From: Gemmatimonadota bacterium
GTDB lineage: Bacteria > Gemmatimonadota > Gemmatimonadetes > Gemmatimonadales > GWC2-71-9
Assembly (NCBI GenBank): GCA_039591655.1
Contig: JBDHDE010000019.1
Span: 1 to 43,829, forward strand
DNA length: 43,829 nucleotides
Reading direction: 5' to 3'
Shown here: positions 763 through 43,613 of the stretch, piece by piece
Layout: every line of letters begins with the position of its first letter
How positions within the stretch are numbered: position 1 is the stretch's first letter
Program-made: the position numbers and the translations under genes
The notes under the pieces: generated by a model
Database searches by the model: none
What the model was told of the DNA's origin: nothing
Seen by the model: only the letters and a program-made list of their open reading frames with translations

Positions 763-821
763 GGTGCAATCGGGGCGTCGCTTTCGGGGGCGGGTGAGCT
801 CCTGGAATAGATGAAGGAACG

Positions 822-854
822 TTGAAGGAACGTTAATGAAAAAGGGAGCATTCT
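822..854 (+). promoter_or_regulatory. Putative OmpR-family direct-repeat box plus -10 element
   Basis: TTGAAGGAACGTTAAT (822-837) overlaps an 11-bp tandem repeat TGAAGGAACGT x2 (812-833). CATTCT lies 11 nt downstream. Confidence 0.45.
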
Positions 855-919
855 GGTCTGGACGCCTCTGGGTAAGGGCCGTACTATAGGCCAGTTACAG
901 TCCTACGGGGGAGGGGCTT

Positions 920-2440
920 ATGAGAAGGACCTTTGTCCTGGGGGCGGCTGTCGTCGGGGGACTGCTGACGATGGCGGCGCCGCTCCACGCACAGGGCTAC
1001 CAGGTGCGTCTCGACACCTGGTTCATGTCCTATGCTTACCGCGGCTACAGCCTGGACAGCATACAGTCGTCCGACGTGATTACCGGCCCCGACGGCGGGG
1101 CGATCACGCCGGACAGCTTTGCGGTCAGGTGCGGGGCCGGCGCCGACTACTGCACGTACTTCCCGCCGGATTCGTCGCTCCGGGGCAACCCGCTCGTGTC
1201 CACGCTTGAGGCGTCGCTCTGGGGCCTGGGGGTACAGGGCCTGAGATTCCGCCTCAAGGGGCGGGTGGGGGCCGACCTATCGGACTCGACGGTCTGGCCG
1301 GCGGTGAAGCCCACGGTTCAGTTGCTGGAGGCCTACGCCGAGTACAAGTACCGCGGGCTCACCGTTCTCGGCGGACGGTTCAACGAGATCTCGCGCCTGG
1401 GCTTCACCGGGCTCGACGGTGCCAAGGTGGGACTTCGCTTGTTCGACCGTAAGCTCGAGCTCGTGGGCTACGGCGGCTGGGGGCTCGCCGTGGGCGCCGT
1501 GATCCCCGTGACCAGCCAGTGGGTGAATCCGCTCGACCAGTATCAGCCCCAGAAACGGCAATACGTGCTGGGCGGTGGGGTGGGATGGAACCTGCCCGGG
1601 TTCAGCGGCCGCTGGCTATACCAGCGGGAGATCGACGGCGGTTCCGACCAGAACTACCTGTTCTCGGAGCGGACCTCGCTGGACGCCTCCTGGCGGCCGG
1701 TGTCGCGGATCACGATCAGCGGCGGCGCGGACTACAACATCGCCGTGGGCCAGTTCGGAACCGCCGACGTCACGGTCAGCTACGCCACGCCGAACCGGTT
1801 CCTCGGAACTTCCATCGGTTGGCGTCGCTACCGGCCGTACTTCCCGTTGTGGACCATCTGGGAGGCCTTCAGCCCGGTGTCGTACGATGCCGGCTGGGCG
1901 TCGGTCTACGTCTGGCCGACGCGGGGCCTCGAGCTCCGGGGCCGCGGCGAGGTGTACGGCTACAAGGAGACGGATACCGCGACGCCCACTGTGCGGGCGG
2001 AGAACGGTGGCTGGCGCTACTCCCTCGGCATCGGCTACAACGGGCTGCGCAACTGGCGGTTCGACTACGACTACACCGCGGTGAAGAGCGTGGGAGCGCA
2101 GGCTATCGGGTGGAACGCCCGCGTCACGTGGGAGCCGCTCCGCACGGTCTTCCTCACGGCGGATGGCGGCCGCCTGCTGCGTCCGCTGGAATTCCGCTAC
2201 AACGACGTGGATCTCTGGACGGCGGCGCTGCGGGCCGACTGGCGGCCGCTGCCGGACGTCCGGGCCATGGTCGAGGCGCGGTATTACGGTGAGGATCGCA
2301 AGCGTCCCGACGCGGCAGCGATCAACAACTGGGAGCAGATCCGCATCAACGCCGGCCTGACCCTCTACTTCGGGTCGGGGGCTGATACGCCGTCGTTGCA
2401 TCCCGCGATCCTACGCATCCCCGAAAGCCGGAGTGAGTGA
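920..2440 (+). CDS. Outer-membrane beta-barrel protein (putative porin of a porin-cytochrome conduit)
   Basis: Sec signal (APLHA/Q), many alternating aromatic/Gly beta-strands, GGAGG RBS, 3 nt upstream of a 12-heme cytochrome. Confidence 0.7.
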   Translation: MRRTFVLGAAVVGGLLTMAAPLHAQGYQVRLDTWFMSYAYRGYSLDSIQSSDVITGPDGGAITPDSFAVRCGAGADYCTYFPPDSSLRGNPLVSTLEASLWGLGVQGLRFRLKGRVGADLSDSTVWPAVKPTVQLLEAYAEYKYRGLTVLGGRFNEISRLGFTGLDGAKVGLRLFDRKLELVGYGGWGLAVGAVIPVTSQWVNPLDQYQPQKRQYVLGGGVGWNLPGFSGRWLYQREIDGGSDQNYLFSERTSLDASWRPVSRITISGGADYNIAVGQFGTADVTVSYATPNRFLGTSIGWRRYRPYFPLWTIWEAFSPVSYDAGWASVYVWPTRGLELRGRGEVYGYKETDTATPTVRAENGGWRYSLGIGYNGLRNWRFDYDYTAVKSVGAQAIGWNARVTWEPLRTVFLTADGGRLLRPLEFRYNDVDLWTAALRADWRPLPDVRAMVEARYYGEDRKRPDAAAINNWEQIRINAGLTLYFGSGADTPSLHPAILRIPESRSE

Positions 2441-2443
2441 CCG

Positions 2444-3409
2444 ATGAAAGCGATGATGACGCTTGCCGTTGCGGCGGTCTTTACCGCCGCGGTTGGCACC
2501 GGCCCGGCGCCGGCTCCGGTGGACGGGCAACAGGCTCAGCAGTTCGATCATGCGCGGCACAGCGCGCTCTTCACGTCCTGCAGCATGTGCCACTCGGGTG
2601 TGGGGACGGTTGATGGCGCGTTCTATCCGGATCCCTCGTTCTGCGCCTCGTGCCACAACGGGCAGATGCAGCCCAGGGTGGACTGGCAGCCGCCGGCCTA
2701 CGTGCCCAGAGCGGACCTCAAGTTCAACCACGCCGAGCACCCACCGGTGGACTGCACCAGCTGTCACCAGCAAGAGGGCGCTTCCTGGATGGCGGTGGAG
2801 ACGGCCGTAGTGGAGCAGTGCCTGGCCTGTCACGGGATCGAGGCAGGGCACCACGACGCGCCGGCATCACCATGCGGGCAATGCCACATGCAGGCGCCCA
2901 AGCCGGCCACGCACATAGGGGACTTCCCCACGATGCACGGTGTGGAGGCTGCGGCCGGTCCGGAGACCTGCGCGGGCTGCCACGTGCGCACCGACTGCCT
3001 GGAGTGCCACCGGCCGGGCGCCGCGACGCCGGCGCCGGACTATCATCCGGCGGACATGCTGCAACAGCACCCGGTGCAGGCCTGGGCGCCGCTGGCGGAG
3101 TGCAGCAACTGTCACAACGTGGGGCAGTTCTGCCAGGACTGTCACCAGAATGCCGGCCTGGTGTCCGGTGACAACCGCATTGGCGCCGGTTATCACGACG
3201 CGAACCCGAACTTCAGCGTGGGCCACGGCCAGGCGGCGCGCCAGTCCCTGGAGGCATGTGTGGCTTGCCACACTGAGGCGGACTGCGTGCGGTGCCACTT
3301 CAACGCGAGCCCACACGGGCCTAATTGGGCGGAGACCGCCGAGAAGATCCGCAGCCGGAACCCGACTTCCTGCTCGGTGTGCCACGTGGGTGGTATTCCG
3401 GGAGGTTGA
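2444..3409 (+). CDS. Periplasmic multiheme cytochrome c, 12 CxxCH
   Basis: Signal peptide; 12 CxxCH motifs counted; FDHARH/FNHAEH c3-like His motifs. Confidence 0.9.
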   Translation: MKAMMTLAVAAVFTAAVGTGPAPAPVDGQQAQQFDHARHSALFTSCSMCHSGVGTVDGAFYPDPSFCASCHNGQMQPRVDWQPPAYVPRADLKFNHAEHPPVDCTSCHQQEGASWMAVETAVVEQCLACHGIEAGHHDAPASPCGQCHMQAPKPATHIGDFPTMHGVEAAAGPETCAGCHVRTDCLECHRPGAATPAPDYHPADMLQQHPVQAWAPLAECSNCHNVGQFCQDCHQNAGLVSGDNRIGAGYHDANPNFSVGHGQAARQSLEACVACHTEADCVRCHFNASPHGPNWAETAEKIRSRNPTSCSVCHVGGIPGG

Positions 3410-5805: not shown

Positions 5806-7140
5806 ATGAAGCGCATCGTGATCTTGGGGGCCGGAACGGCCGGGACCATCATGGCCAACCGCCTCCGGAAGCTCCATAAGCGGGACCTCTCCGCCGGGGA
5901 GATCGGAATCACCATCGTCGACCAGGACGATGTGCACGTCTATCAGCCCGGCTTGCTGTTCGTCCCGTTCGGGATCTACACGCCCCAAGACTGCATCAAG
6001 CCGCGCCGCAGCCAGGTGACCCGGGACGTGCGCTACGTGTCCGGGGTGGTCGATCGCGTCGAGGCCGACGAGGACCGGGTGCATCTCCAGGGCGGGCAGA
6101 CCCTGGACTACGACGTCCTGATCATTGCCACTGGCACGCGGACCGCGCCGGAGGAGACCGAGGGGCTGACGGGTGCGGGGTGGCAGGAGAACATGTTCGA
6201 CTTCTACACCCTCGACGGCGCCACCAAGCTGGGTGCGGCGCTCGAGCGGTGGGAAGGCGGCAGGCTCGTCCTGAACATCGTGGAGATGCCCATCAAGTGC
6301 CCCATCGCGCCGTTGGAGTTCGTGTTCCTGGCGGACTGGTACTTCGGCAACAAGGGGATCCGCGACAAGGTCGAGATCGCGCTGGCGACCCCACTGGACG
6401 GTGCCTTCACCCGCCCCATCGCCTCCAAGGCGTTCGGCGACCTGCTGGAGCGGAAGGGCATCGAGCTGATCCCCGAGTTCAACGCCGGCGAGGTGGACGG
6501 TCCAAACGGCAAGCTCATTTCCTGGGACGAGCGCAGCGTGGACTTCGATCTCCTGGTGAGCGTCCCGCTCCACATGGGCGCCGACTTCGTAGAGCGGTCA
6601 CCTGGGCTGGGCGACGACATGCACTTCGTCCTCACCGACCAGGCGACGCTGCAGGCCAAGCGCAAGGACAACATATTCGCGGTGGGGGACGCCACGAATG
6701 TGCCGACGTCCAAGGCCGGCTCCGTGGCGCACTTCCAGGCAGAGATACTGGAGCAGAATATCAGGCGCTACCTGGCGGGCCAGCCGCTCGGGGAAGCGTT
6801 CGACGGCCACGCCAACTGCTTCATCGAGACCGGCTACAACAAGGCGGTGCTCATCGACTTCAACTACGAGGTCGAGCCGCTCCCCGGCAAGTTCCCGTTC
6901 GCCGGGGTGGGGCCGCTCTCCCTGCTGAGGGAGACCCGCCTCAACCACTGGGGCAAGATGTTCTTCCGGTGGATGTACTGGAACATGCTGCTGCCCGGGA
7001 TGGAGATCCCGGGTGTGCCTCCCCGGATGTCGCTGCGGGGAAAGCAGCAGGGCGACCTGCGGGAGCTCCAGCGGCATCAGCTGCCGGGCAGGTCACCGGA
7101 TTCCGTTGAATCCGGCGACGAATCGAACAGAGTCGCGTAG
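5806..7140 (+). CDS. Sulfide:quinone oxidoreductase-like FAD-dependent oxidoreductase
   Basis: ILGAGTAG Rossmann motif, HVYQPG, IKCPIAPLE, VGDAT...SKAGS, GHANCFIETG; next to TusE and DsrE genes. Confidence 0.8.
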   Translation: MKRIVILGAGTAGTIMANRLRKLHKRDLSAGEIGITIVDQDDVHVYQPGLLFVPFGIYTPQDCIKPRRSQVTRDVRYVSGVVDRVEADEDRVHLQGGQTLDYDVLIIATGTRTAPEETEGLTGAGWQENMFDFYTLDGATKLGAALERWEGGRLVLNIVEMPIKCPIAPLEFVFLADWYFGNKGIRDKVEIALATPLDGAFTRPIASKAFGDLLERKGIELIPEFNAGEVDGPNGKLISWDERSVDFDLLVSVPLHMGADFVERSPGLGDDMHFVLTDQATLQAKRKDNIFAVGDATNVPTSKAGSVAHFQAEILEQNIRRYLAGQPLGEAFDGHANCFIETGYNKAVLIDFNYEVEPLPGKFPFAGVGPLSLLRETRLNHWGKMFFRWMYWNMLLPGMEIPGVPPRMSLRGKQQGDLRELQRHQLPGRSPDSVESGDESNRVA

Positions 7141-7159
7141 TTACGAGAGGGGAAGGGAC

Positions 7160-7474
7160 ATGACGGCGACCATCGCAGGTATCTCGGTGGAAGTGGATGC
7201 GGAGGGCTTCCTGCAGAAGCCCGAGCAGTGGACCAAGGAGATCGCGGCGGAGATCGCGCAGGACTCCGGGATCGCGGAGCTCACCGATCGCCACTGGAAG
7301 GTGATCGAGTTCATGCGGAGCCGGTATCTGGAGACGGGCAGCGCTCCGTCGATTCGCTCGCTGGGCAAGGAGTCGGGCGTTCCCATCAAGGAGCTGTACA
7401 AGCTGTTCCCCAAGGGTCCGGCCAAGCTCGCGGCGAAGATCGGTGGAATCCCGAAGCCGCGCGGCTGCATCTGA
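7160..7474 (+). CDS. TusE/DsrC-family sulfur relay protein (single C-terminal Cys)
   Basis: VDAEGFL...W...LTDRHWKVIEFMR...LFPKGP...GIPKPRGCI; only the penultimate Cys is present. Confidence 0.88.
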   Translation: MTATIAGISVEVDAEGFLQKPEQWTKEIAAEIAQDSGIAELTDRHWKVIEFMRSRYLETGSAPSIRSLGKESGVPIKELYKLFPKGPAKLAAKIGGIPKPRGCI

Positions 7475-7499
7475 TACTCGCGGAGAGAAGGAAGGGCAG

Positions 7500-8009
7500 A
7501 TGACGACTACCATGCCTGATTCGGCAGCCGCCGCGACGCCGGCGAGCGAGCCGATCAAGAAGGTCTCGATCATCATCTCCAAGGGCTCGCTGGAAGGGGT
7601 TTATCCAGGCCTGATCATGGCGAACGGCGCCCGCATGGAGGGGATCGAGGCCAACGTGTTCTTCACGTTCTTCGGGATGGATGCCATCAGGAAGAAGAAG
7701 CAGGACGGCATCAAGGTCGCGACCGTCGGCAATCCCGGTCTCCATATGGCCACGTGGCTCGGAGGGTTTCCGGGAATGTCCGCCTTCGTGACCAAGATGA
7801 TGAAGAAGAAGATGGAGGAGCTAGACATTCCACCAATCTCAGAGTTCATTGAGATGATCGCCGACACCGGTGCGGGCGTCTACGCCTGCAAGGCCTCGGT
7901 GGACATGTTCAACCTCGCCAAGGACGACTTCGTCGATCACGTGACCGACATAATCACCGTGGGCGAGTTCTACGAAATGGCGGCTGGAGGCCAGATCGTC
8001 TTCACTTGA
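7500..8009 (+). CDS. DsrE/DsrF/DrsH-like (DsrE2) sulfurtransferase
   Basis: IIISKGSL, VFFTFFGM, YACKASVDMF, C-terminal QIVFT. Confidence 0.85.
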   Translation: MTTTMPDSAAAATPASEPIKKVSIIISKGSLEGVYPGLIMANGARMEGIEANVFFTFFGMDAIRKKKQDGIKVATVGNPGLHMATWLGGFPGMSAFVTKMMKKKMEELDIPPISEFIEMIADTGAGVYACKASVDMFNLAKDDFVDHVTDIITVGEFYEMAAGGQIVFT

Positions 8010-12402: not shown

Positions 12403-12807
12403 ATGAAGGCACGCACGAAGTTCATCGTCGGAGCCGTAATGGTCGCAGGGACCGTCGGCTTTCTCATGACCTCCGGGATCAAAGAGACCGGGGTGTACTT
12501 CCTCACGCCGTCCGAGCTGGCCGCCAAGGTCCAGGCCGATCCGTCGTTCCACGATGTGGGTGTCAAGATGGGCGCCCGTGTCGTCCACGGCTCTATCGAG
12601 CGGGACGTCGGGTCCCAGACCATCACGTTCGAGGTGACCGACGGGGCGCAGATGTATCCCGTGGTGTACCGCGGTATCGCTCCCGACACGTTCACCGATG
12701 ACGTGGATGTGGTGGTGGAGGGGCGCCTGATGGCCGACGGCACGTTCCACGCGACGAGCCTGCTGGCCAAGTGCGGCTCTCGCTACGAGACGACTCCTTC
12801 CGCGTGA
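12403..12807 (+). CDS. ccmE: Cytochrome c maturation heme chaperone, CxxxY type
   Basis: YFLTPSE, VVYRGIAPDTF, VVVEG, LLAKCGSRY. Confidence 0.9.
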   Translation: MKARTKFIVGAVMVAGTVGFLMTSGIKETGVYFLTPSELAAKVQADPSFHDVGVKMGARVVHGSIERDVGSQTITFEVTDGAQMYPVVYRGIAPDTFTDDVDVVVEGRLMADGTFHATSLLAKCGSRYETTPSA

Positions 12808-12811
12808 TCGC

Positions 12812-14854
12812 ATGACCGTACTCGGACAACTTGCGCTGTGGCTCGCGCTGCTCCTCGGCGTATGGGGCACCGTCGTGGGCTTCGTGGGTGGCTGGCAACA
12901 GCGCCCGGAGCTCATCCGCAGCGCCCAGCGGGCCACCTACGCCCTCGCCGGGGTGCTCATCGTCGCCTCGATCGGCCTCCTCGTTGCCCTGGCACGCCAC
13001 GACTTCAACGTGGCGTACGTCGCGAGCTACACGAACCGCACGCTGCCGCTGGTGTACACGCTCTCGGCGTTCTACGGCGGGCAGTCGGGAAGCCTCCTGT
13101 TCTGGGCCGTGGTGCTGGCGGTGTTCGGCGCGCTGGCGCAGTGGCTGACCTCGCGGCGCTACGACCACTTGCTGCCCCACGTGGCGGGCATCACCTCGGC
13201 GATCACGCTGTTCTTCGTGATCGTGATCCTGTTCGCGGCCAACCCGTTCGAGCGGCTGCCGTTCACGCCGGCGGACGGCAACGGGCTGAATCCCCAGCTG
13301 CAGAACCCCGGGATGGTGATCCACCCGCCGATGCTGTACCTGGGCTACATCAGCATCGCGGTCCCGTTTGCGTTCGCCATGGCGGCGCTGATCTCGAAGC
13401 GCCTCGACACGGGCTGGCTCCACGCCATCCGGAAGTGGACCATCGTGTCGTGGCTCTTCCTCTCCATCGGCATCACGCTGGGCATGTGGTGGGCCTACGT
13501 GGAGCTGGGGTGGGGCGGCTACTGGGCGTGGGACCCCGTGGAGAACGCGAGCTTCCTGCCCTGGCTCACCATGACTGCGTTTCTGCACTCCGTGATGGTC
13601 CAGGAGAAGCGGGGCATGTTGAAGAAGTGGAACATGGTGCTCATCGCTCTGAGCTTCATGCTCTCCATCTTCGGCACGTTCATCACCCGCAGCGGGATCA
13701 TCTCGAGCGTGCACTCGTTCACGCAGTCCGCCATCGGCTACTACTTCCTGGGCTTCCTCATCTTTGCGGCAATCGCGCTGGTCTGGCTCCTCATGAGCCG
13801 GATGCCGGTCCTCGAATCCGAGTCGCAGCTCGAGAGCATGGTGTCCCGCGAGGCGAGCTTCCTGTTCAACAACCTGCTCCTCGTGGGCATCGCGTTCTCC
13901 GTCTTCTGGGGCACGATGTTCCCCATGATCTCGGAGCTGGTACGGGGCACGCAGGTGACGGTGGGGCCGCCGTTCTTCAATCAGGTGAACATCCCACTTG
14001 GGCTGGGACTGCTGGCACTGACTGGGATCGGTCCCCTAATTGCGTGGCGGCGGGCGAGCCCCAGGAACCTGCAGCGGCAGTTCGCGGCTCCGGTGGCGGC
14101 GGGTGTGATCGTGGCGGTCCTGCTCCTAGCTCTGGGGATGCGCAGCTTCTACGCCATGATGGCTCTGGCCCTGGCCACGTTCGTGGTTGGGACGATCACG
14201 CAGGAGTTCGTTCGGGGCGTCGGTGCGCGCCACCGCCTGCACGGTGAGGGCTACCCGCAGGCGTTCGCCCGGCTCGTGGGGCGCAACCGGCGCCGCTACG
14301 GGGGGTATGTTGTCCACCTCGGCATCGTGCTGTACTTCGTGGCGTTCGTGGGGCAGGCTTTCAAGACCGACATCGAGGCCTCCCTCCAGCCGGGGGAGTC
14401 AGTGGATCTGCGCTCGCCGTGGGGTCACACGTACACGTTCACCCACCTTGGGGTGTCGCAGTACGAAGAGCTCAACCGGTTCACCACGGCGGCCAGCGTG
14501 GAGGTAGCCCGCAACGGCAGGCGCGTCGGGATCATGAAGAGCGAGAAGCGTCAGCACGTGGATTCGTTCGGGCGACCCTCGTTCGAGCCGTCCACCGAGG
14601 CCGGCATCCGGAGCGACCTGCGGGAGGACATCTACATCGTCTACGCGGGCTCCGTGGCAGGCACCGAGGAGGCCGTCTACCGGTTCACGCTCAACCCGCT
14701 GGTGTGGTGGCTCTGGTTCGGAGGCGCCGTGTTGGTGGCTGGCGGCGTAGTGACGCTGTGGCCGGGCGCCTCGTCCGGCGCGGAGCGTCGGCGCGCCATG
14801 GCCGGCTACGCTGCGAGTCTCACCGGGAAGGGCAGTGAAGTCGCAGCGCGCTGA
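12812..14854 (+). CDS. ccmF: Cytochrome c heme lyase CcmF
   Basis: GNGLNPQLQNP, HPPMLYLGY, WAYVELGWGGYWAWDPVENAS, TRSGIISSVHSF. Confidence 0.96.
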   Translation: MTVLGQLALWLALLLGVWGTVVGFVGGWQQRPELIRSAQRATYALAGVLIVASIGLLVALARHDFNVAYVASYTNRTLPLVYTLSAFYGGQSGSLLFWAVVLAVFGALAQWLTSRRYDHLLPHVAGITSAITLFFVIVILFAANPFERLPFTPADGNGLNPQLQNPGMVIHPPMLYLGYISIAVPFAFAMAALISKRLDTGWLHAIRKWTIVSWLFLSIGITLGMWWAYVELGWGGYWAWDPVENASFLPWLTMTAFLHSVMVQEKRGMLKKWNMVLIALSFMLSIFGTFITRSGIISSVHSFTQSAIGYYFLGFLIFAAIALVWLLMSRMPVLESESQLESMVSREASFLFNNLLLVGIAFSVFWGTMFPMISELVRGTQVTVGPPFFNQVNIPLGLGLLALTGIGPLIAWRRASPRNLQRQFAAPVAAGVIVAVLLLALGMRSFYAMMALALATFVVGTITQEFVRGVGARHRLHGEGYPQAFARLVGRNRRRYGGYVVHLGIVLYFVAFVGQAFKTDIEASLQPGESVDLRSPWGHTYTFTHLGVSQYEELNRFTTAASVEVARNGRRVGIMKSEKRQHVDSFGRPSFEPSTEAGIRSDLREDIYIVYAGSVAGTEEAVYRFTLNPLVWWLWFGGAVLVAGGVVTLWPGASSGAERRRAMAGYAASLTGKGSEVAAR

Positions 14855-15428
14855 GGGGCGCTACTCGAGGCGCGAGATCATCGGGCTCTCGCTGGCCGCG
14901 CTCTTCCCCGGGGCGCTGCTGCAGGGCCAGCGTGCCCAAGAGGGTGATTCGGCGACGACCCGACTGTACCGGCCAGACATGGCCGGGCGCCCGCGAGACC
15001 GCATCACGGACTACGAGAACGATCCATTCATCATCGGGATCGAGGAACAACTGCGCTGTACCTGCGGGTGCAACCTCGACGTGTACACCTGTCGTACCAC
15101 CGATTTCACCTGCGGCGTCTCTCCGGCGTTGCACCGCGAGGTGGTCGCCATGGTGGAGGACGGGAGGACGGCGGAAGAGATTCTCGACGCCTTCATCGCG
15201 CAGCACGGCGAGATGGTCTTGATGGCGCCGAAGAAAGAGGGCTTCAACCTCGCCGCGTACTTCGTGCCGGGAGCGGCCATCGTGACGGTGGGCAGCGCGC
15301 TGCTCTTTGCGCTCGCGCGGCGCTCGCGCCCGGCGGTCGACGTGGCTGCTGGCGCGAGCGGCGCGGCCGCGGGGGTGTCTTCCGAGGACGCGGCCAAGCT
15401 GGAGGCCGAACTCAGCAAGCTGGAGTAG
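14835..15428 (+). CDS. ccmH: CcmH/CycL-like cytochrome c biogenesis protein
   Basis: LRCTCGC, EEILDAFIAQHGEMVLMAP, C-terminal TM helix; overlaps the end of ccmF. Confidence 0.75.
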   Translation: MKSQRAEGRYSRREIIGLSLAALFPGALLQGQRAQEGDSATTRLYRPDMAGRPRDRITDYENDPFIIGIEEQLRCTCGCNLDVYTCRTTDFTCGVSPALHREVVAMVEDGRTAEEILDAFIAQHGEMVLMAPKKEGFNLAAYFVPGAAIVTVGSALLFALARRSRPAVDVAAGASGAAAGVSSEDAAKLEAELSKLE

Positions 15429-15434
15429 CGACCG

Positions 15435-15989
15435 ATGCTGGAGTTGATTGCGGGGGTGTTGGTGACGTTCGTGGCGGTGGGTGTGGTGCTGGAGCCGCTG
15501 ATTCCCAGGCCTGGTGCTCGACCCGCTGCGGCGCCGGCTGCAGAAGAGCCGGAGTTCATCGACATCGAGGAATCGGAGTCGCCCAAGATCCAGGCGCTCC
15601 TCGCGCTCAAAGAGATCGAGTTCGATCGGGCGACGGGCAAGCTATCGGACGAGGACTACAACGCCCTCAAGGCCAAGTACCAGCAGGTGGCGCTGGCCGC
15701 CATCGATGCCGAGGAGCAAGAGGGAACGCCCGGGGCTGGGACTCCTGCGGACGCGGCCGAGGAGTTGATCAAACGGGCCCGCGAGGCGAAGGTCTGTCCC
15801 AACTGCGGTCCGCGCCCGGAGGCGGACGCCGCGTTCTGCTCCGACTGCGGGCGCAAGCTCGCGGCCTCGGCTCCATCGAGCAAGAGTGGGTCGTTTTGTG
15901 ACGGTTGCGGCGCATCCCTCTCAGGGGGCGCGAAGTTCTGCGGGGAGTGTGGTGCGAAGGTAGAGGCGGCGACCGCGCCAGTCAGCTAG
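15435..15989 (+). CDS. CcmI-N-like protein with double zinc ribbons
   Basis: N-terminal TM, LKEIEFDRATGKLSDEDY, four CxxCG motifs. Confidence 0.7.
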   Translation: MLELIAGVLVTFVAVGVVLEPLIPRPGARPAAAPAAEEPEFIDIEESESPKIQALLALKEIEFDRATGKLSDEDYNALKAKYQQVALAAIDAEEQEGTPGAGTPADAAEELIKRAREAKVCPNCGPRPEADAAFCSDCGRKLAASAPSSKSGSFCDGCGASLSGGAKFCGECGAKVEAATAPVS

Positions 15990-27790: not shown

Positions 27791-28548
27791 CAGTCGCTCA
27801 GGATCGCAGCCAGCTCGCGCACGGCCTCCCCGCCGGTGAGCCTGAGGAACAGCTCTTCCAGCGAGGCATCGCCGGCCGCCGTCTGGCGGCGCAGCTCGTC
27901 GATCGTGCCGCGGGCCACGATCCGGCCTTCCTGGATGATGGCGATGCGGTCGCACATCGCCTCGGCCACCTCCAGGGTGTGCGTGCTCATGAGCACCGTG
28001 CCGCCGCGTTCCACGAAGGCGCGGAAGATGTCCTTCAGGAGGCGCGCCCCCCTGGGATCGAGGCCCACCATGGGTTCGTCCACCACGATGCACTCGGGTC
28101 GGTGGATCAGGGCGGAGGAGATAATGAGCTTCTGGCGCATCCCGTGGCTGTAGGACTCCACCAGCTCGTTCTTCCAGACGGACAGCTCGAACAACTCCAA
28201 CAGCTCATCCACCCGCCGCTCGACGGTGGCGCCGTCTTGGCCGTAGAGTCCCGCGACGAACCGCAGGAACTCGGCGCCCGTGAGCTTCTCGTAGACGAAG
28301 GGCCGGTCCGGGATGAACCCCAGGCGCGACTTGGCCGCCATCGGGTCCGCGATGACGTCGTCTCCGCCCAGCCAGATGCGTCCTGTGGTGGGCCGGAGGA
28401 TCCCGGCGATCATCCGCAGGGTGGTGGTCTTTCCGGCGCCGTTGGGACCCAGGAAGCCGAACAGTTCGCCCCGCGGCACGTGCAGGTCGATCTCGTCCAC
28501 CGCGACGAACTTGCCGTACTTCTTGGTGAGGTGCTCGAGGCGGATCAT
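27790..28548 (-). CDS. ABC transporter ATP-binding protein
   Basis: GPNGAGKTT, YSHGMRQK, VVDEPMVGLDP, MSTH. Confidence 0.92.
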   Translation of the reverse strand: MIRLEHLTKKYGKFVAVDEIDLHVPRGELFGFLGPNGAGKTTTLRMIAGILRPTTGRIWLGGDDVIADPMAAKSRLGFIPDRPFVYEKLTGAEFLRFVAGLYGQDGATVERRVDELLELFELSVWKNELVESYSHGMRQKLIISSALIHRPECIVVDEPMVGLDPRGARLLKDIFRAFVERGGTVLMSTHTLEVAEAMCDRIAIIQEGRIVARGTIDELRRQTAAGDASLEELFLRLTGGEAVRELAAILSD

Positions 28549-30086
28549 GGCGCCTCCTCGGTCTCGACCACGTTCAACGTCAGGCGTCCGATGAGCCGGA
28601 TGAGCTCCACCTGCCGTGCGAGCCCCCCGACGGTGAAGCGCAGGTGGGCCGCATCGGCGGGGAACTGTCCGAATGTGGGATCCACCGCGACCCAACCGTT
28701 GAGGTACACCTCGGGCCACGCGTGGTAGTAGAACGCGCCGTTCATGTACACCAGGCCGGCGGCGGTGCGGGCCGGCAGGCCGATGGAGCGGGCTAGGGCG
28801 ACGTACAGCACCGTGTGCTCGTTGCAGTCGCCACGGCGGGTCGCCAGGACCTCCACTGCGCTGGGGACGCTCACGGTGATACGCTTGTCCAGCTCGTCGT
28901 GTACCCAATTGGTGAGACGCTCGGCGGCCCGGGCTGGGTTCCGCGAGCGCCCGACGATCTGCCGCGCCTGCGCCTGGATGCGCGGGTCGCGGGTCTGGAT
29001 CAGGGGGTCCGAGCCGAGGTACTCGCGAACCTCGGCGTCTACCGCCGGAAGCCGGTACTCTGCCTGCAGGGCTTCCGGCGACTCCCTGCGCACCACCAAA
29101 GTGTCGCCCGACAGGGTCTGCCGGTCGCCGCCCAGGTCGAACCCCTCGAGGCCGACGCCTCCCAGCCGCACCCGGAGCTCACTCAGCTGCTCCCGTGCCA
29201 GAGTCACGTTGGAGGCGATGGCCGTCTGGCGGATGAGGTCCCCGGCCAGCGTGCTGCCCAGCTCCGCCATGTCGCGGCGACGGAAGTTCTCGAAGGCGAT
29301 CTCGAAAGCAGTCCGCTCCATGGCGAAGCCCACCGGGGTGGTGGCGTGCACCACCTGGCCCATGTCGTCGATCCAGGCTTGGAACTCGAGCCCCCGCATG
29401 GCTTGTGTCACGCGCCACGCGTGCAGGGTGTCCCAGCGCGCCGCCACCCACAGCTGGGTGGGCTCGTGAAACGCCGCTGAGTCGGGGACGACCATGGTGG
29501 ACTCGGCGGTCACCGTGACCGCCACGTCGCGCTCATCGAGCTGCAGGGGGTCGAACATCCTGAGGGCGTACGACCTGCCGACCTCCAACTCCCCGCCGAA
29601 CGCGAGGCTCAGGGGGAGCAGGCCCGGCAGGATGATGGGGCGCTCCAGCGGGACCTCGAGCTCCTGCCGGCTGTCGGCGCTCTCCACCACGACGGCCAGC
29701 AGCGAGTCGCCCTTTACCTCGCCCCGCACGCCGAACCGCACGTCGGCGCCGCGCAGGGTGGCCTCGAATGTCCTGAGGCGGAGGGTCCGCGTGAGGTTGG
29801 CGACGGTGCGGGCCTCGACCCGCTGGACGGTGCCCAGCGCCGGGACCTGGAGGATCATGAGGTCCTCCACCCGGACCGTATCCGACAGGGTGTCGACCTT
29901 GCTGGAGGCGAACCCGATCTGCTCGCCGCTGAGCGTCAGCCGGTAGTAGGTCGCCCCCGGCGGCACGTTCATCGCGGCGTCGGCCAGCATCTCGGCGTGG
30001 GGACGGAAGTATTCTCGACGGGCCAGCCAGCCCAGCATGATCAGCCAGACGGCCAGGACGCCGCCGGCCAGGAGCTTGCGGTTCAT
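28545..30086 (-). CDS. Membrane-anchored transglutaminase-like protein
   Basis: N-terminal TM; catalytic triad motifs GDCNEH, YYHAWPEV, WVAVDPT. Confidence 0.85.
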   Translation of the reverse strand: MNRKLLAGGVLAVWLIMLGWLARREYFRPHAEMLADAAMNVPPGATYYRLTLSGEQIGFASSKVDTLSDTVRVEDLMILQVPALGTVQRVEARTVANLTRTLRLRTFEATLRGADVRFGVRGEVKGDSLLAVVVESADSRQELEVPLERPIILPGLLPLSLAFGGELEVGRSYALRMFDPLQLDERDVAVTVTAESTMVVPDSAAFHEPTQLWVAARWDTLHAWRVTQAMRGLEFQAWIDDMGQVVHATTPVGFAMERTAFEIAFENFRRRDMAELGSTLAGDLIRQTAIASNVTLAREQLSELRVRLGGVGLEGFDLGGDRQTLSGDTLVVRRESPEALQAEYRLPAVDAEVREYLGSDPLIQTRDPRIQAQARQIVGRSRNPARAAERLTNWVHDELDKRITVSVPSAVEVLATRRGDCNEHTVLYVALARSIGLPARTAAGLVYMNGAFYYHAWPEVYLNGWVAVDPTFGQFPADAAHLRFTVGGLARQVELIRLIGRLTLNVVETEEAP

Positions 30087-30589
30087 CCCCCGGCGCGGCT
30101 CCGGATCAGGGCTTCCACGACTTCTCGATCCTCGTCGGTTTCCACCACAATACACACGTCGGAGGGATGGGTGGCGTGGCGTAGGTCACCGGCGAAGGCA
30201 TCCACCAAGAGGCCGGCTGCGTCCTCGTGGCTGAGGTTGCCCGGACCCGTCCCCATCAGCGGCACGGCAATGGTGGAGAGTTGCCAGTCCGTGGCCCGCT
30301 GCACCACGCTCCGCAGGGCCCGGCGCACGCCGTCCCGGCTCACCGGCTCCTCCTCGCTGCGGATGATGGCGTGGATCACGAACTCGGCCGCCAGATCGCC
30401 GGCGCCGGTCACGACGGCGACCCCCACGTCCAGCGGCTTTTCGACATGGAGCTGCTGCCAGAACGCCGGGCCGCCGATCTGCTCGAGGCGGCGCAGCTCG
30501 GGGGTGAGGGGCTCCAGGGCGGCGGTGGTGGGCCGAACGACCGCGTCCGCAGGGACGGACGCGAGGTCGTCCACCACGACGCGAATCAC
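30083..30589 (-). CDS. Macro domain protein (degenerate)
   Basis: VVVDDL...ADAVV, AVVTGAGDLAAEFVIHA, TIAVPLMGTG. Confidence 0.78.
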   Translation of the reverse strand: MIRVVVDDLASVPADAVVRPTTAALEPLTPELRRLEQIGGPAFWQQLHVEKPLDVGVAVVTGAGDLAAEFVIHAIIRSEEEPVSRDGVRRALRSVVQRATDWQLSTIAVPLMGTGPGNLSHEDAAGLLVDAFAGDLRHATHPSDVCIVVETDEDREVVEALIRSRAGG

Positions 30590-34824: not shown

Positions 34825-34850
34825 TGACACTTTTTGAAACACGGGCCGTA
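34825..34850 (+). promoter_or_regulatory. Putative ECF (SigW-like) promoter for the array-pspA locus
   Basis: TGACAC-N16-CGTA with a T-tract right after the -35; the B. subtilis SigW consensus is TGAAAC-N16-CGTA. Confidence 0.5.
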
Positions 34851-34887: not shown

Positions 34888-35151
34888 ATGGATCCAGTTG
34901 ACGGCGCCATCGCCGTATCGATCGTCGCCGTGACGATCGGCGGCGTAGCCATTATCGGCATGTTCTCCCGCGCCTTACTGCAGAAGTGGACCCAGGCGAA
35001 GCCGGCCCTGGAGCCGGGAGAGGCCGAAGAGCTGCGGCACGCCATCACCCGGCTCGGCGCCGAGGTCGCCGACGTCCAGGAGAGGCTCGACTTTACCGAG
35101 CGGGTGCTGGCGAGCCAGCGGGAGCGCCAGCAGCTCGAGGGGGGGAACTGA
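34888..35151 (+). CDS. Small TM/coiled-coil protein, PspB-like paralog 1
   Basis: AGGAG RBS, one TM, coiled coil ending DVQERLDFTERVL. Confidence 0.8.
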   Translation: MDPVDGAIAVSIVAVTIGGVAIIGMFSRALLQKWTQAKPALEPGEAEELRHAITRLGAEVADVQERLDFTERVLASQRERQQLEGGN

Positions 35152-35152
35152 G

Positions 35153-35422
35153 ATGGGCGAGATCGCACCGTTCCTGGTCCCCATCACGCTGTTCCTCACG
35201 ATCGGCGCGGTGGCGATCTTCCGGGGACCGATGGGCAAGGCACTGGGCGAGCGGCTGGCCGGAAAGGGTCAGGTGCCCGACTCCTCGGCCGAGACCGAGC
35301 AACTCCGGGCGGAGGTCGAAGAGCTGCGCTGGCGCCTGACGGAGGTCGAAGAGCGGGTGGACTTCGCCGAGCGGGTCCTGTCGCGGCACAGTGACCCCGG
35401 GAAGCTGCCGCGGGGGGAGTGA
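35153..35422 (+). CDS. Small TM/coiled-coil protein, PspB-like paralog 2
   Basis: One TM, EVEERVDFAERVL. Confidence 0.8.
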   Translation: MGEIAPFLVPITLFLTIGAVAIFRGPMGKALGERLAGKGQVPDSSAETEQLRAEVEELRWRLTEVEERVDFAERVLSRHSDPGKLPRGE

Positions 35423-35425
35423 GCC

Positions 35426-35725
35426 GTGCCACCGTACTTCTACTTCGAGATGATCGTGCTGCCGCTGCTGGGGATGGGTATGGGAGGCGCCTTCCTGTTC
35501 GGGGTGTACCGTACCGTCAATCACTGGATCGAGCGCCGGCATGAGCGCGAGCTCGCCGCCCAGGGTGGCGGCGTCCCGCCCCAGGCGCTGGAGCGCCTCA
35601 CCGCCCGGGTGGAGGCTCTGGAGGACGTGGGTTTCCGCCTCCAGGAGCTGGAGGAGCGCGTCGACTTCGCGGAGCGGATGCTCACACAGCAACGGGAGCA
35701 GGACCGGCTGGGGTCGGGGAGCTAG
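35426..35725 (+). CDS. Small TM/coiled-coil protein, PspB-like paralog 3
   Basis: One TM, ELEERVDFAERML. Confidence 0.8.
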   Translation: MPPYFYFEMIVLPLLGMGMGGAFLFGVYRTVNHWIERRHERELAAQGGGVPPQALERLTARVEALEDVGFRLQELEERVDFAERMLTQQREQDRLGSGS

Positions 35726-35728
35726 CGG

Positions 35729-36025
35729 ATGGAGCCATACCTCATCGACAGCCTGATCATTCCTCTGGCGGGCATGGCCACGGGGATCATCCTGGGGCTT
35801 CCCGTCGTGCGGGTCATCGTGAAGTTCGTGGACCGCAAACTCGGCGGCTCGTCGTCGCCCGGAGATCTTCGGGAGCTGAGGGCCGACGTCGACCGGCTCA
35901 CGACCCAGCTGGGCGGGGTGGAAGACATCGCCCACCGGGTGGCGGAGCTGGAGGAGCGCATCGACTTCACCGAGCGGGTGCTGGCCCAGGAGCGGGCGAG
36001 GCCTGGGCTGCCGCACGGCGAATAG
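35729..36025 (+). CDS. Small TM/coiled-coil protein, PspB-like paralog 4
   Basis: One TM, ELEERIDFTERVL. Confidence 0.8.
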   Translation: MEPYLIDSLIIPLAGMATGIILGLPVVRVIVKFVDRKLGGSSSPGDLRELRADVDRLTTQLGGVEDIAHRVAELEERIDFTERVLAQERARPGLPHGE

Positions 36026-36031
36026 GGCCAG

Positions 36032-36370
36032 GTGCTGCTGATCCAGTTCCCCGTCCCCGTCCCGCCCGATCCGGGCGTCCTGGTGGTGTTCCAGCAGATT
36101 ATCCTGCCGATCATGGGAATGGGGCTCGCGGCGTTCCTCGGATTCGGGGTCTTCCGCATGATCGGCAAGGCGATCGAGCGAAGGTCGCTGGACGAGTCGG
36201 GCCGGGCCGCCCTCGACGCCCTCCGTGACGAGCTGGAGCGGCAGCGGATCCAGGTTGAGGGCGTGGAGGAGTTGCGGGACCGCCTGGTGGAGGTCGAGGA
36301 GCGCCTCGACTTCGCGGAGCGGGTGCTGACCCAGCGCAAGGAACCGCAGCTCCCGGGAGGGGAGGGCTAG
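36032..36370 (+). CDS. Small TM/coiled-coil protein, PspB-like paralog 5
   Basis: One TM, EVEERLDFAERVL; start uncertain. Confidence 0.78.
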   Translation: MLLIQFPVPVPPDPGVLVVFQQIILPIMGMGLAAFLGFGVFRMIGKAIERRSLDESGRAALDALRDELERQRIQVEGVEELRDRLVEVEERLDFAERVLTQRKEPQLPGGEG

Positions 36371-36371
36371 C

Positions 36372-36662
36372 GTGGAGGATATTCTGGCCATCACGCTGCT
36401 GTTCGGTGGTGGGGCCGTCTTCCTGCTGTCGATCTCGCCGGTGGGGCGGGCCATCGCAGACCGGATCCGCCGGGGTGGTGGGGACCTCAGCCACGAACTG
36501 GCGGCCCGGATCCGCGAGTCCCAGTTGGCGATGGAGGACGAGCTGGAGGGCCTGCGTCACGAGCTGGTGGAGGTGCAGGAGCGATTGGACTTCGCCGAGC
36601 GGCTGCTGGCCAAGCAGCGCGAGCCGGAGCAGCTGGCACCGGGCGAGGAGGCAGGGCCGTAG
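36372..36662 (+). CDS. Small TM/coiled-coil protein, PspB-like paralog 6
   Basis: One TM, EVQERLDFAERLL; GGAGGG RBS. Confidence 0.8.
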   Translation: MEDILAITLLFGGGAVFLLSISPVGRAIADRIRRGGGDLSHELAARIRESQLAMEDELEGLRHELVEVQERLDFAERLLAKQREPEQLAPGEEAGP

Positions 36663-36681
36663 TCTGCGGCCGGCGCCCAAG

Positions 36682-36697
36682 TGGCGCGGGGCGTGCG
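36682..36697 (+). promoter_or_regulatory. Possible sigma54 -24/-12 promoter for pspA
   Basis: TGGCGC-GGGGC-GTGCG has GG-N10-GC spacing but is imperfect at -12. Confidence 0.25.
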
Positions 36698-36804
36698 AAT
36701 CATTGATCTTATCTTGAGCGAGCCACGCAGTAGCGTGGCAGGCCGATATGGGAGCGCGCGGACGGGGTCGGGTGCGCGCGCCGCACCGGAGGGGTGAAAG
36801 CGAC

Positions 36805-37578
36805 ATGGGCATCTTTCAGCGTCTGATGACTGTGATCAAGGCCAACGTCAACGCCTTGATCGGACGGGCCGAAGATCCAGAGAAGGTGCTGGATCAGCTG
36901 CTGGTGGAGATGCGCGGGCAGCTGGCCAAGACCAAGCAGGAAGTCGCGGCGGCGATCGCGGACGAGAAGAAGCTCCAGGCTCAGGTCGAGAAGGAGAAGA
37001 AAGCGGCCGAGGACTGGGAGCGGCGCGCCATGTTGGCTGTGCAGGAAGGCCGCGATGACCTGGCCAAGCAGGCCCTGGTGCGGCACAACGAGCACCTGCA
37101 ACAGGCCCAGCAGATGAACGAGACCTGGGCGCGCCACAAGGCTGACGTCGAAACCCTCAAGGTCTCGCTGCGCGATCTCAACGACAAGATCGAGGAAGCG
37201 AAGCGCAAGAAGAACCTCCTGGTTGCCAGGCAGCGCCGGGCCGAGGCTCAGGGGCGCATTCAGGAGACCATGTCCGCGATGTCCGACAAGAGCGCCTTCG
37301 AGAGCTTCCGGCGCATGGAGGAGAAGATCGAGGACATGGAGCGGCAAGCGCTGGCGGCCACGGAGCTGGCTGGAGAGTTGGAGGGTGACACCCTGCAGCA
37401 GCAGTTCCAGGCCCTGGAGTTCCACGGGAGCGCCGACAACCAGCTGCTCGAGCTCAAGAAGAAGATGGGGATGCTGTCCCCCGGCGAGGCAGCGGAGCGT
37501 CCTCAGCTGACCGATGGTGACGACGTCACCGACGCCGAGCTCGTGGAGGACGACGAGGCCAGCGCGAAAGAGGAGTAA
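36805..37578 (+). CDS. pspA: PspA/IM30 (bacterial ESCRT-III) family protein
   Basis: MGIFQRLMTVIKANVNALIGRAEDPEKVLDQ, GRDDLAKQAL, FRRMEEKI, LLELKKKMG. Confidence 0.93.
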   Translation: MGIFQRLMTVIKANVNALIGRAEDPEKVLDQLLVEMRGQLAKTKQEVAAAIADEKKLQAQVEKEKKAAEDWERRAMLAVQEGRDDLAKQALVRHNEHLQQAQQMNETWARHKADVETLKVSLRDLNDKIEEAKRKKNLLVARQRRAEAQGRIQETMSAMSDKSAFESFRRMEEKIEDMERQALAATELAGELEGDTLQQQFQALEFHGSADNQLLELKKKMGMLSPGEAAERPQLTDGDDVTDAELVEDDEASAKEE

Positions 37579-38702
37579 TGAACGCAGACGGTTGGCAGCG
37601 GCTTGCGGCGACGCTGGTCGTCCTCTTCGTCGTCGCTCTCCTCCTGCTGTTCCTCCGCGAGGTCCGCGAGGTCATTGTCCTGCTCTTCATCGCCGCGCTC
37701 CTCGCGGTCTATCTCTCTGCAGTCACCGACATCCTAGTCCGCCGCTTCCGCCTGGTTAGACCCCTGGCGCTGACCCTCGCCATGATTCTCACCTTGGCGG
37801 CGGCTACGGGCGTCGGCGCCCTCATCCTGCCGCCGCTGGTCCAGCAGGTGCAGGATCTGGTGGGCGCCCTGCCGCGCTATGCCCAGGATCTCGAGGGCGT
37901 GATGGCCAGCTGGGCGGAGCGCTACCCGGTGCTGGAGGGCACCGTGCTGGGTGCCGAGGGTGGTGGAGCGGTGCAGACCATGATTGACGATGCCACCGGC
38001 TTCGTGCGAGGATCCCTGCTGCCCTACCTCACGGCCGGAGGGAAGCTCGCCGTGGAGCTGGTGAGCGTGATGGCCATGGCCATCTACCTGGCCCGCAACC
38101 CCGGTGAGTACCGGGAAGGCCTGATCTCGCTGGCGCCCCCGAAGCAGCGGCACATTGCCCGGGCCACCATGGCCGATCTGGGCGAGACGATGCGCACCTG
38201 GATCTGGGCCCAGCTGTTCGCCATGCTCGTCCTGGGAGTGCTGACCGCCATCGGCCTGTGGGCGCTTCAGGTGCCCTATGCCCTGGCCTTCGGGGTCTTC
38301 ACCGGGGTGGTGGCCATCGTGCCGTTCTTTGGCACGATCGTCTCCACCATCATCCCGGCGCTCCTCATGCTCACCATCAGCTCCTTTCCGCACGCCGTTG
38401 CCGTGCTGGGCCTGGGCATCGTGGTGCACCTGATCGAGGCCAACGTGGTCGCTCCCCTCATCTTCGAGGAGCGGGTAAGCCTGCCGCCGGTGCTCACCAT
38501 CATGAGCGTGCTGGTGATGGCCACCCTGTTGGGCGCCCTGGGGCTCATAGTGGCCGTGCCCACGCTGGCCGCCCTGATGGTGGGCGTCCGCCACATCCTG
38601 TTCGGGCAGATCTATGGGGAGGCGGATGTGCACCGCATTCCCAGTGCGGTGCTGGTGCAGACCACCGGAGAGCGGAAGGTCATCACCGTCCCAGACGCCT
38701 AG
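37578..38702 (+). CDS. AI-2E family transporter (PerM/TqsA-like)
   Basis: Multi-TM; IVPFFGTIV, HLIEANVVAPLI, LIVAVPTLA; start overlaps the pspA stop. Confidence 0.88.
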   Translation: MNADGWQRLAATLVVLFVVALLLLFLREVREVIVLLFIAALLAVYLSAVTDILVRRFRLVRPLALTLAMILTLAAATGVGALILPPLVQQVQDLVGALPRYAQDLEGVMASWAERYPVLEGTVLGAEGGGAVQTMIDDATGFVRGSLLPYLTAGGKLAVELVSVMAMAIYLARNPGEYREGLISLAPPKQRHIARATMADLGETMRTWIWAQLFAMLVLGVLTAIGLWALQVPYALAFGVFTGVVAIVPFFGTIVSTIIPALLMLTISSFPHAVAVLGLGIVVHLIEANVVAPLIFEERVSLPPVLTIMSVLVMATLLGALGLIVAVPTLAALMVGVRHILFGQIYGEADVHRIPSAVLVQTTGERKVITVPDA

Positions 38703-43157: not shown

Positions 43158-43233
43158 GCTGACGTAGCTCAATCGGTAGAGCGGCTGATTTGTAATCAGC
43201 AGGTTAAGGGTTCGAGTCCCTTCGTCAGCTCCA
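43158..43233 (+). tRNA. tRNA-Thr(TGT)
   Basis: Acceptor GCTGACG/CGTCAGC, anticodon arm GCTGA-TTTGTAA-TCAGC, TTCGAGT loop, encoded CCA. Confidence 0.95.
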
Positions 43234-43241
43234 GTATGTCC

Positions 43242-43267
43242 CGCAGGGACGCATGGGCGTCCCTGCG
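43242..43267 (+). other. Perfect 11-bp hairpin in the tRNA spacer
   Basis: CGCAGGGACGC-ATGG-GCGTCCCTGCG. Confidence 0.6.
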
Positions 43268-43326
43268 CTTGTGACCGACCGCTCTGTGGCCTGGCGATCG
43301 GTTAGGTGGAGGGCAACGCGGGCAAC

Positions 43327-43409
43327 GGTGGGGTGCCCGAGCGGCCAAAGGGAGCAGACTGTAAATCTGCCGGCGTACGCCTACGAAGGTTCGAATCCTT
43401 CCCCCACCA
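43327..43409 (+). tRNA. tRNA-Tyr(GTA)
   Basis: Acceptor GGTGGGG/CCCCACC, GCAGA-CTGTAAA-TCTGC, long variable arm, CCA not encoded. Confidence 0.95.
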
Positions 43410-43463
43410 CTGACGGTTGGATGCGTCGCCTCGGGCCGACGCCTAGTGGAGAGCCGCTGCCTC

Positions 43464-43536
43464 GCGGGTGTAGCTCAGTTGGTAGAGCATCAGCCTTCCA
43501 AGCTGAGGGTCGCGGGTTCGAGTCCCGTCGCCCGCT
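43464..43536 (+). tRNA. tRNA-Gly(TCC)
   Basis: Acceptor GCGGGTG/CGCCCGC, TCAGC-CTTCCAA-GCTGA. Confidence 0.95.
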
Positions 43537-43541
43537 TTGCT

Positions 43542-43613
<72 letters not shown>

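Follow-up and report, generated by a model that had tools for sequence, protein, structure and literature searches.

A conserved array of six PspB-like genes at the head of the pspA locus in a Gemmatimonadota bacterium

The array and its proteins

A 43,829-nt stretch of DNA from a Gemmatimonadota bacterium (assembly GCA_039591655.1, contig JBDHDE010000019.1, referred to here as the window) carries six intact, paralogous open-reading frames in tandem directly upstream of pspA, all on the forward strand, encoding proteins of 87–112 amino acids (aa) and separated by gaps of 1, 3, 3, 6 and 1 nt (Table 1). All coordinates of the array, and the 142 nt separating it from pspA, confirm those reported in an initial annotation made from the sequence alone. 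The array is a conserved, real feature which heads the pspA locus behind a promoter motif of the sigmaW type. Its genes are not chance open-reading frames, as relatives are matched by the family profile in 128/151 genomes of the phylum, the third-codon-position GC content of the array genes (0.88–0.92) is like that of pspA (0.87), and orthologues in relatives are under purifying selection. The pspA gene is the sole copy found in the genome, and its product scores under the enterobacterial PspA and LiaH equivalog cut-offs.

Each of the six proteins contains a single hydrophobic 19-mer (Kyte-Doolittle 1.98–2.46), with no lysine or arginine before it and three or four after it, and all six share a core motif, E-R-[LVI]-D-F-[AT]-E-R, within a longer pattern, [ED][VL][EQ]ER[LVI]DF[AT]ER[VML]L, in which E, R, D, F, E, R and L are invariant. 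The earlier description of one membrane helix, a coiled coil and a common motif in each protein is therefore upheld by hydropathy and motif scan in 6/6. An AlphaFold2 model of paralog 4, built from a 144-row alignment, consists of the two helices given in Table 1 (mean predicted local distance difference test score 90.8, predicted template-modelling score 0.46), the first being the membrane helix continuing into the basic stretch. Foldseek returned no match for this two-helix model, and a sequence search of the PDB with the family profile gave generic helical matches only, with no solved PspB found by sequence. From hydropathy, charge pattern and model, the array proteins are predicted to be single-pass, N-out/C-in proteins in which a cytoplasmic helix follows the membrane helix.

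Anchoring on the motif placed 481/508 family proteins in a regular heptad register: positions a and d are hydrophobic, two heptads in a row have Arg at g together with Glu at e, and b, c and f are occupied by the near-invariant D, F and R. A relaxed R-h-x-x-h-E heptad (h, hydrophobic) occurs in 93% of the 508 proteins compared with 10% of shuffles, whilst the strict form, Arg(g)-h(a)-x-x-h(d = L, I, V)-Glu(e), is found in the upstream heptad of paralogs 2–5. In E. coli, PspB and PspC have this heptad pattern too, in their corresponding helices. Arg(g)-h-x-x-h-Glu(e) is described as directing many short coiled coils into parallel trimers, but it is also found in some dimers (PMC3653964). The heptad reading of the motif fits a role in oligomerisation, and the outward-facing invariant residues suggest a putative common binding surface.

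Table 1 Features of the array and pspA locus in the window.
Feature	Coordinates	Strand	Details
ECF (extracytoplasmic function; sigmaW-type) promoter motif	34825..34850	+	-35 TGACAC, T-tract, 16-nt spacer, -10 CGTA; predicted operon start
Paralog 1, PspB-like	34888..35151	+	87 aa; subfamily F
Paralog 2, PspB-like	35153..35422	+	89 aa; subfamily A
Paralog 3, PspB-like	35426..35725	+	99 aa; GTG start; subfamily D
Paralog 4, PspB-like	35729..36025	+	98 aa; subfamily D; modelled helices 3–38 and 44–90
Paralog 5, PspB-like	36032..36370	+	112 aa; GTG start, exact start uncertain; Pro-rich N-terminus; subfamily D
Paralog 6, PspB-like	36372..36662	+	96 aa; GTG start; subfamily B
Gap between paralog 6 and pspA	36663..36804	+	142 nt; CesT/Tir-like chaperone gene sits here in most relatives, absent here
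pspA (PspA/IM30)	36805..37578	+	257 aa; PF04012 E 4.7e-44, 151.1 bits vs cut-off 33.9
AI-2E family permease	37578..38702	+	PF01594 E 5.2e-59; overlaps pspA stop

No recognisable pspC or pspF had been noted in the window, and profile searches of the 95% complete assembly extend this to the whole genome: PspC (PF04024) was not found in the genome, PspF gave no match above the TIGR02974 cut-off, and canonical PspB (PF06667) had no match anywhere in the genome. Across the window's own family (f1; f2–f11 denote other Gemmatimonadota families) PspC is patchy, being present in 15/74 genomes, in none of which was it seen, by position, beside the listed pspA coordinates. No Lia model, of LiaI/LiaF type, appears among the matches listed for the six proteins or among the top 25 families matched by 144 family members. 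With no PspC and no PspF/sigma54 control found, the locus is not one of the Proteobacterial pspFABC kind.

Distribution, linkage to pspA and paralog history

The family profile matched 38/41 relatives, all 74 f1 genomes (5–20 matches each) and 27/31 f2 genomes (1–4 each), and outside the class 1/15 genomes; cluster representatives at E 0.001 or better numbered 2,661. In a motif-based locus search, taken to the best 80 of 374 confirmed, 78/79 loci are titled Gemmatimonadota or Gemmatimonadales. The remaining one, on a contig of 1.9 kb with a Chloroflexota title (L083), holds two family genes and cesT, and is probably mis-binned. An unnamed, mostly Armatimonadota ESM Atlas cluster scored 0.82, and the wider family may extend to other phyla.

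The neighbourhood of pspA was compared in 74 genomes, comprising 40 more distant genomes and 34 of 37 pspA-positive relatives (three f1 genomes with pspA at a contig end were omitted, and further f1 genomes with a pspA match lie outside the sample); two of the 34 were taken from contigs already known to carry the array and the start of pspA. Family genes lie immediately 5' of pspA, or of a cesT-pspA pair, in 20/20 f1 loci (1–9 copies) and 6/6 f3 loci (2–5 copies), and a single, more divergent family gene occupies this position in f5 (1/1), f6 (7/7) and f8 (2/2), whilst the single f4 and single f11 pspA loci have no adjoining family gene. The survey of copy number and linkage hence bears out the proposed association with pspA, in 36/74 loci overall and 26/26 in f1 and f3 together. 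Amongst the 79 motif-found loci, five of which duplicate compared genomes, pspA is present in 66 with arrays of 2–14 copies; the remainder are six multi-copy loci at a contig edge and seven single copies with ~5 kb downstream lacking pspA. Intergenic gaps were ≤30 nt in 365/412 cases (median 2.5 nt).

Upstream of the array in the window a gene ends at 34779 which, from its sequence and not from a profile scan, we take to be uvrA. We considered whether the array is linked to uvrA rather than to pspA, and rejected this: across 98 loci with array and pspA, uvrA is at least 500 nt away or unseen in 47, close in 41 and undecidable in 10, so that 47/98 loci keep the array at pspA with uvrA away. A conserved array–pspA linkage, independent of the uvrA neighbour, is thus supported.

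The six paralogs share just 23–43% pairwise identity. Clustering 508 proteins by their N-terminal halves gave nine subfamilies of at least six members, each with its own conserved membrane-helix pattern, and the subfamilies follow a set order, F-A-D-D-D-B in the window and F-A-D(2–4)-B in the genus, subfamily B being the one present in the largest number of loci (84). In a quick tree of 101 of 513 rows and 103 columns, used for shallow ortholog groups only and not for PspB placement, paralogs 1–4 group, with good support, with the genes at matching positions in other species, whilst the placement of paralogs 5 and 6 has weaker support. The ratio of non-synonymous to synonymous substitution (dN/dS) was ≤0.30 in 22/23 position-matched ortholog pairs drawn from relatives of the window. 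These conserved subfamily patterns, the position-matched orthologs and the low dN/dS indicate that the N-terminal parts are specialised, not drifting; the divergence of the N-terminal halves pointed out earlier thus holds between paralogs but not between orthologs, where these halves are conserved. The same data bear on whether the array simply results from recent tandem duplication and consists of redundant or decaying copies. There are indeed anywhere between 1 and 14 copies, and within the genus subfamily D has expanded, but the low identity between paralogs, their grouping with position-matched orthologs and the dN/dS values speak against it, and this reading, already disfavoured by the tree and dN/dS, appears highly improbable.

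A divergent family member also sits at a second conserved spot (contig C22:32567–32869 in this genome; also L231 and L238), between genes which presumably, judging by resemblance and not by a profile scan, are bshC and murJ. Downstream of pspA, the AI-2E permease recurs in many related loci. Elsewhere in the window, positions 28545–30589 on the reverse strand encode a membrane-anchored transglutaminase-like protein (PF01841) adjoining a macro-domain protein (PF01661), and a Thr-Tyr-Gly-Thr tRNA cluster lies at 43158–43613, preceded by a gene we presume to be cysteinyl-tRNA ligase-like. Read by eye and not from profile scans, the stretches at 25–3406, 5806–8006 and 12403–15986 presumably hold multiheme cytochrome-like, sulfide:quinone reductase/DsrE-like and cytochrome c maturation genes, respectively.

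Relation to PspB and to known psp operons

None of the six window proteins exceeds any Pfam or NCBIfam cut-off, and they are not strict PF06667 members. Below the cut-offs PspB is nevertheless the most-matched family: with E up to 0.5, Pfam PspB matched 22/144 members (best E 1.4e-4), followed by SlyX (19) and MtrG (19), and the NCBIfam model TIGR02976 matched 59/144 (best E 3e-6), followed by MtrG (35) and GspM (26). The ESM Atlas gave PspB as the nearest named cluster for two paralogs at 0.76, which is a lead only, 49% and 18% of the cluster members carrying PspB. Using hhalign, the family aligned to 63 PspB proteins at 68.8% (E 4.5e-5, 66 columns), and against single E. coli sequences reached 24.9% for PspB, compared with 2.5% for PspC and 1.6% for YhcB.

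Outside the phylum the highest-scoring matches found, in both search directions, are accessory genes of sphingomonad psp operons. On an 880-kb Sphingomonas replicon the family profile has two matches only (E 2.2e-6 and 0.011; three candidates scored), and both belong to its psp operon, where they lie behind pspC without annotation. This operon, from Sphingomonas parapaucimobilis (L195:4712–5592), has three unannotated small PspB-like genes behind pspC, two of which match TIGR02976 weakly. Reciprocally, a profile of one of these two accessory proteins (83 rows, with PF06667 on 7 of 120 listed homologs) ranked family members 1–5, 7, 9 and 12 amongst 44,587 frames of the window's genome (best E 0.007), and hhalign of the two profiles gave 81.6%, over 29 columns only. 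Real sequences also beat their own shuffles, in which the membrane helix and hydrophobic pattern were kept, in 92–98% of cases.

We weighed these matches against a purely convergent origin, in which a family non-homologous to PspB has arrived at the same combination of membrane anchor and coiled coil. Several results weigh against PspB ancestry: the window proteins score 10.6–11.9 bits against the curated PspB cut-off of 51.7, MtrG, GspM and SlyX are the runner-up families in the Pfam and NCBIfam scans, the unrelated yhcB (13.1 bits) nearly equals pspB, the best match on the E. coli K-12 chromosome (14.0 bits, E 0.21; four candidates scored), and the canonical PspB profile yields nothing significant amongst this genome's 44,587 frames, a test which is underpowered, the deeper PspB alignment coming from two clades only (effective depth 2.7). 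R-h-x-x-h-E heptads moreover recur in unrelated coiled coils, and the sphingomonad match is short. Against convergence stand the first place of PspB in three independent libraries, the reciprocal matches with psp-operon genes, the shuffle comparison, the hhalign margin of PspB over YhcB and the genomic partner, pspA, common to both. Convergence, which concerns ancestry only, therefore seems doubtful, and the comparisons point quite probably to remote PspB homology, nearest to the sphingomonad accessory PspB paralogs. The PspB-like nature proposed for the proteins is in this sense consistent but remote.

Tandem PspB genes in psp operons are already in print. Ravi et al. 2024 (PMC11237479) record duplicated PspB genes within psp operons, as well as PspC fused to divergent PspB and a CesT-PspA dyad; one supplement row, for Erythrobacter litoralis AOL22920.1, reads PspF||X-PspA-PspB-PspC+PspB-four SIG+PspB-PspB, with five extra PspB genes. 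The multi-PspB operons of E. litoralis and S. parapaucimobilis resemble the window array in having small, divergent PspB-type genes in tandem within the pspA operon. They differ in that their run lies after pspA-pspB-pspC, with PspF divergent, whilst the window array precedes pspA, is led by an ECF motif and has no canonical pspB, pspC or pspF found; its family further has the usual cesT in between and an invariant D-F in the motif. Enterobacterial PspB (PF06667, TIGR02976) likewise has an N-terminal membrane helix and a cytoplasmic helix ending in an R-h-x-x-h-E heptad, but the array family falls below the cut-offs, has a longer coiled coil and occurs in 1–14 copies, and in contrast to enterobacterial pspFABC there is no PspC partner at the array locus. 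The cesT-pspA pair (PF22550 being the cesT product in relatives) forms the core of the locus in most Gemmatimonadota examined, matching the dyad of Ravi et al., whose described dyad partners are band-7, polyamine and transporter proteins; PspB-like arrays are not amongst those. Since a multi-PspB array beside pspA is already published for Erythrobacter (PMC11237479), the window array is a variant of the multi-PspB psp operon, neither a new system nor pspFABC; the claim of a novel system was overstated, the more so with many family members lying away from pspA. "Gemmatimonad" is absent from the text and supplementary PDF of PMC11237479 and from the main text of Popp et al. 2022 (PMC9239133), although the data deposits of both, and the web application of the former, lie outside this scope and may tabulate the locus. 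Literature searches, with subscription journals outside their coverage, found no publication on the Gemmatimonadota array.

In the genome of the window the family coiled-coil motif is also fused behind a TM2 domain (PF05154, E 2.8e-17; contig C15, L201:268–660, reverse strand), with the same promoter motif upstream, and this combination of two helices and a PspB-type tail recalls the published fusion of PspC to divergent PspB.

Promoter motif, putative function and significance

We scanned for the promoter pattern [AC]AC-N16/17-CGTA up to 220 nt upstream of the first gene. It precedes 84/104 family-led loci (shuffles mean 3.0, maximum 9; reverse strand 2), including 79/92 pspA-linked arrays, and nearly always begins TGA[AC]AC. 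In loci without an array the pattern directly precedes cesT or pspA in 20/38 cases (shuffles mean 1.25, maximum 4). As the same motif directly precedes cesT/pspA where the array is lacking, we infer that the array occupies the space between the conserved promoter motif of pspA and pspA itself, inside its transcription unit, and is co-transcribed with it. The motif type, including a T-tract proximal to the -35 element, matches the B. subtilis sigmaW consensus (PMC5758882). A sigma-70 promoter scan found none. The window promoter ranked second in a genome scan, a rank that is circular, the scoring matrix having included that site.

A second TGAAAC lies in the spacer at 34835–34840, 10 bp past the -35 hexamer, and such doubling recurs in many f1 promoters; it may mark a second promoter or a regulator site. 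No terminator-like site was found on the forward strand of the gap before pspA. This genome, in which cesT is not present, has lost it, and the gap before pspA repeatedly shows an AT-rich element similar to a housekeeping -10, so that pspA, where cesT was lost, may additionally have its own promoter. In five genus members (L026, L029, L030, L032 and L061) this gap holds a second ECF motif, which the window lacks. A sigma54-like pattern seen by eye before pspA was dropped, as it occurred in the gaps of 1/16 relatives examined.

Elsewhere in the genome the motif is found ahead of an ECF sigma factor gene, for which SigW is the best-scoring model (E 2.2e-44, under its cut-off), two stand-alone paralogs, and genes for a Toastrack protein, an outer-membrane efflux protein and an M48 peptidase. 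This SigW-like gene is the best candidate for the sigma factor acting on the array. A wider regulon outline (contig C9:40413–41012 in this genome; sites in L200–L211) comprises the ECF sigma gene and the gene behind it, the Toastrack and outer-membrane efflux proteins, a TetR regulator, an M48 peptidase, a PAS-Fis protein and small membrane proteins.

On balance we think it somewhat probable, from sequence comparisons, that the six proteins are the putative stress-induced membrane partners of PspA, in a system without detectable PspC or PspF. Envelope stress would activate the ECF sigma factor (candidate SigW-like) and the array and pspA would be transcribed together; the array proteins would insert into the inner membrane N-out/C-in, and their cytoplasmic coiled coils, carrying one to three R-h-x-x-h-E-type heptads, would associate as oligomers of a single paralog or of several, parallel trimers being the likeliest form. 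One common surface would then be made up of the invariant D, F and R at b, c and f, substituting for the PspA-binding C-terminal helix of PspC in enterobacteria, whilst the subfamily-specific membrane helices would bind client membrane proteins or sites of damage that differ between them, and PspA would thereby be recruited to these places for repair. The array proteins would thus act as effectors or adaptors downstream of the sigma factor, not as transducers to PspF. Given the ECF-sigma promoter motif and the absence of any PspF or PspC found, an effector role is likelier than the sensor role first suggested. There is a precedent in B. subtilis, where pspA-ydjGHI is sigmaW-controlled from a TGAAAC/CGTA-type promoter and requires membrane partners which place PspA (PMC8581546); those partners are YdjG/H/I, of SPFH type, and the candidates here are PspB-like paralogs.

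A number of observations weigh against the partner role. No family gene adjoins pspA in 25/25 f2 and 11/11 f7 loci, and many family copies lie away from pspA, namely five clear copies and one divergent copy in this genome and 3–8 in each of five well-assembled f1 genomes, along with a divergent f2 subfamily in pspA-unlinked runs of 1–3 genes (L214–L221, L223), some with long N-terminal extensions. Position d of the invariant heptad is Ala or Thr, which does not fit the strict trimer motif, and no strict copy occurs in paralogs 1 and 6. The promoter motif lies just upstream of the candidate sigma gene in 9/28 testable genomes; these nine are 9/9 testable genus members, with 0/19 others at that distance and one distant match. 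When paralog 6, in three copies, was modelled together with PspA 1–225, the median was 0.29 against a mark of 0.32, a result given no weight in either direction.

Signal transduction, with the array proteins relaying membrane stress to an anti-sigma factor or histidine kinase as PspBC relay it to PspF through PspA, would suit the divergent f2 members at L214–L221, whose frame-coupled runs lie between genes that we take, from their sequence and not from scans, to be histidine-kinase-like and NtrC-like. These kinase-linked members nevertheless do not have the D-F-x-E-R form of the motif, and the arrays are downstream targets of the ECF promoter motif in a genome with no PspF above cut-off, which makes a transducer role improbable.

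A stronger competitor is that the proteins are stress-induced parallel protectors, which would form oligomers and attach directly to membrane proteins that are misassembled or form pores, sharing only a promoter with pspA. In Yersinia the PspA-binding part is the C-terminal domain of PspC (PMC5596341), not PspB, and PspBC are described as blocking secretin toxicity without PspA (PMC3467454, PMC5596341). Each f1 genome has 5–20 family matches to one pspA, the promoter motif is likewise found at stand-alone copies (C46 and C15 in this genome; L222, L224 and L226), and pspA is kept without an array in all 36 f2 and f7 loci. Yet a pspA linkage that outlasts the loss of uvrA, and is kept by single genes in three distant families, exceeds the needs of shared regulation, and we regard parallel protection as possible, though on the unlikely side.

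If the proteins are indeed partners of PspA, the Gemmatimonadales may have a PspC- and PspF-free form of Psp in which up to 14 old, separately conserved paralogs join in combinatorial mixed trimers, the invariant surface nucleating the ESCRT-III-like polymer of the one PspA and the interchangeable helices selecting lesions or clients; we offer this full scheme tentatively and consider it unlikely to hold as a whole. Were it true, such trimers would mirror in bacteria the diversified adaptors through which eukaryotic ESCRT-III is recruited. The multi-PspB idea itself is not new. Recruitment of PspA to damaged membrane is known for few partner sets only. The present analysis puts a name to a family of thousands of proteins that lacked annotation, and sketches a sigmaW-like regulon for envelope stress in a phylum that is abundant and little studied. 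A lineage with PspB-like proteins only, in which conserved subfamilies combine a fixed surface motif with a varied membrane helix, represents a natural dissection, and makes it testable whether the PspB-type helix alone is a PspA-docking or an oligomerisation module.

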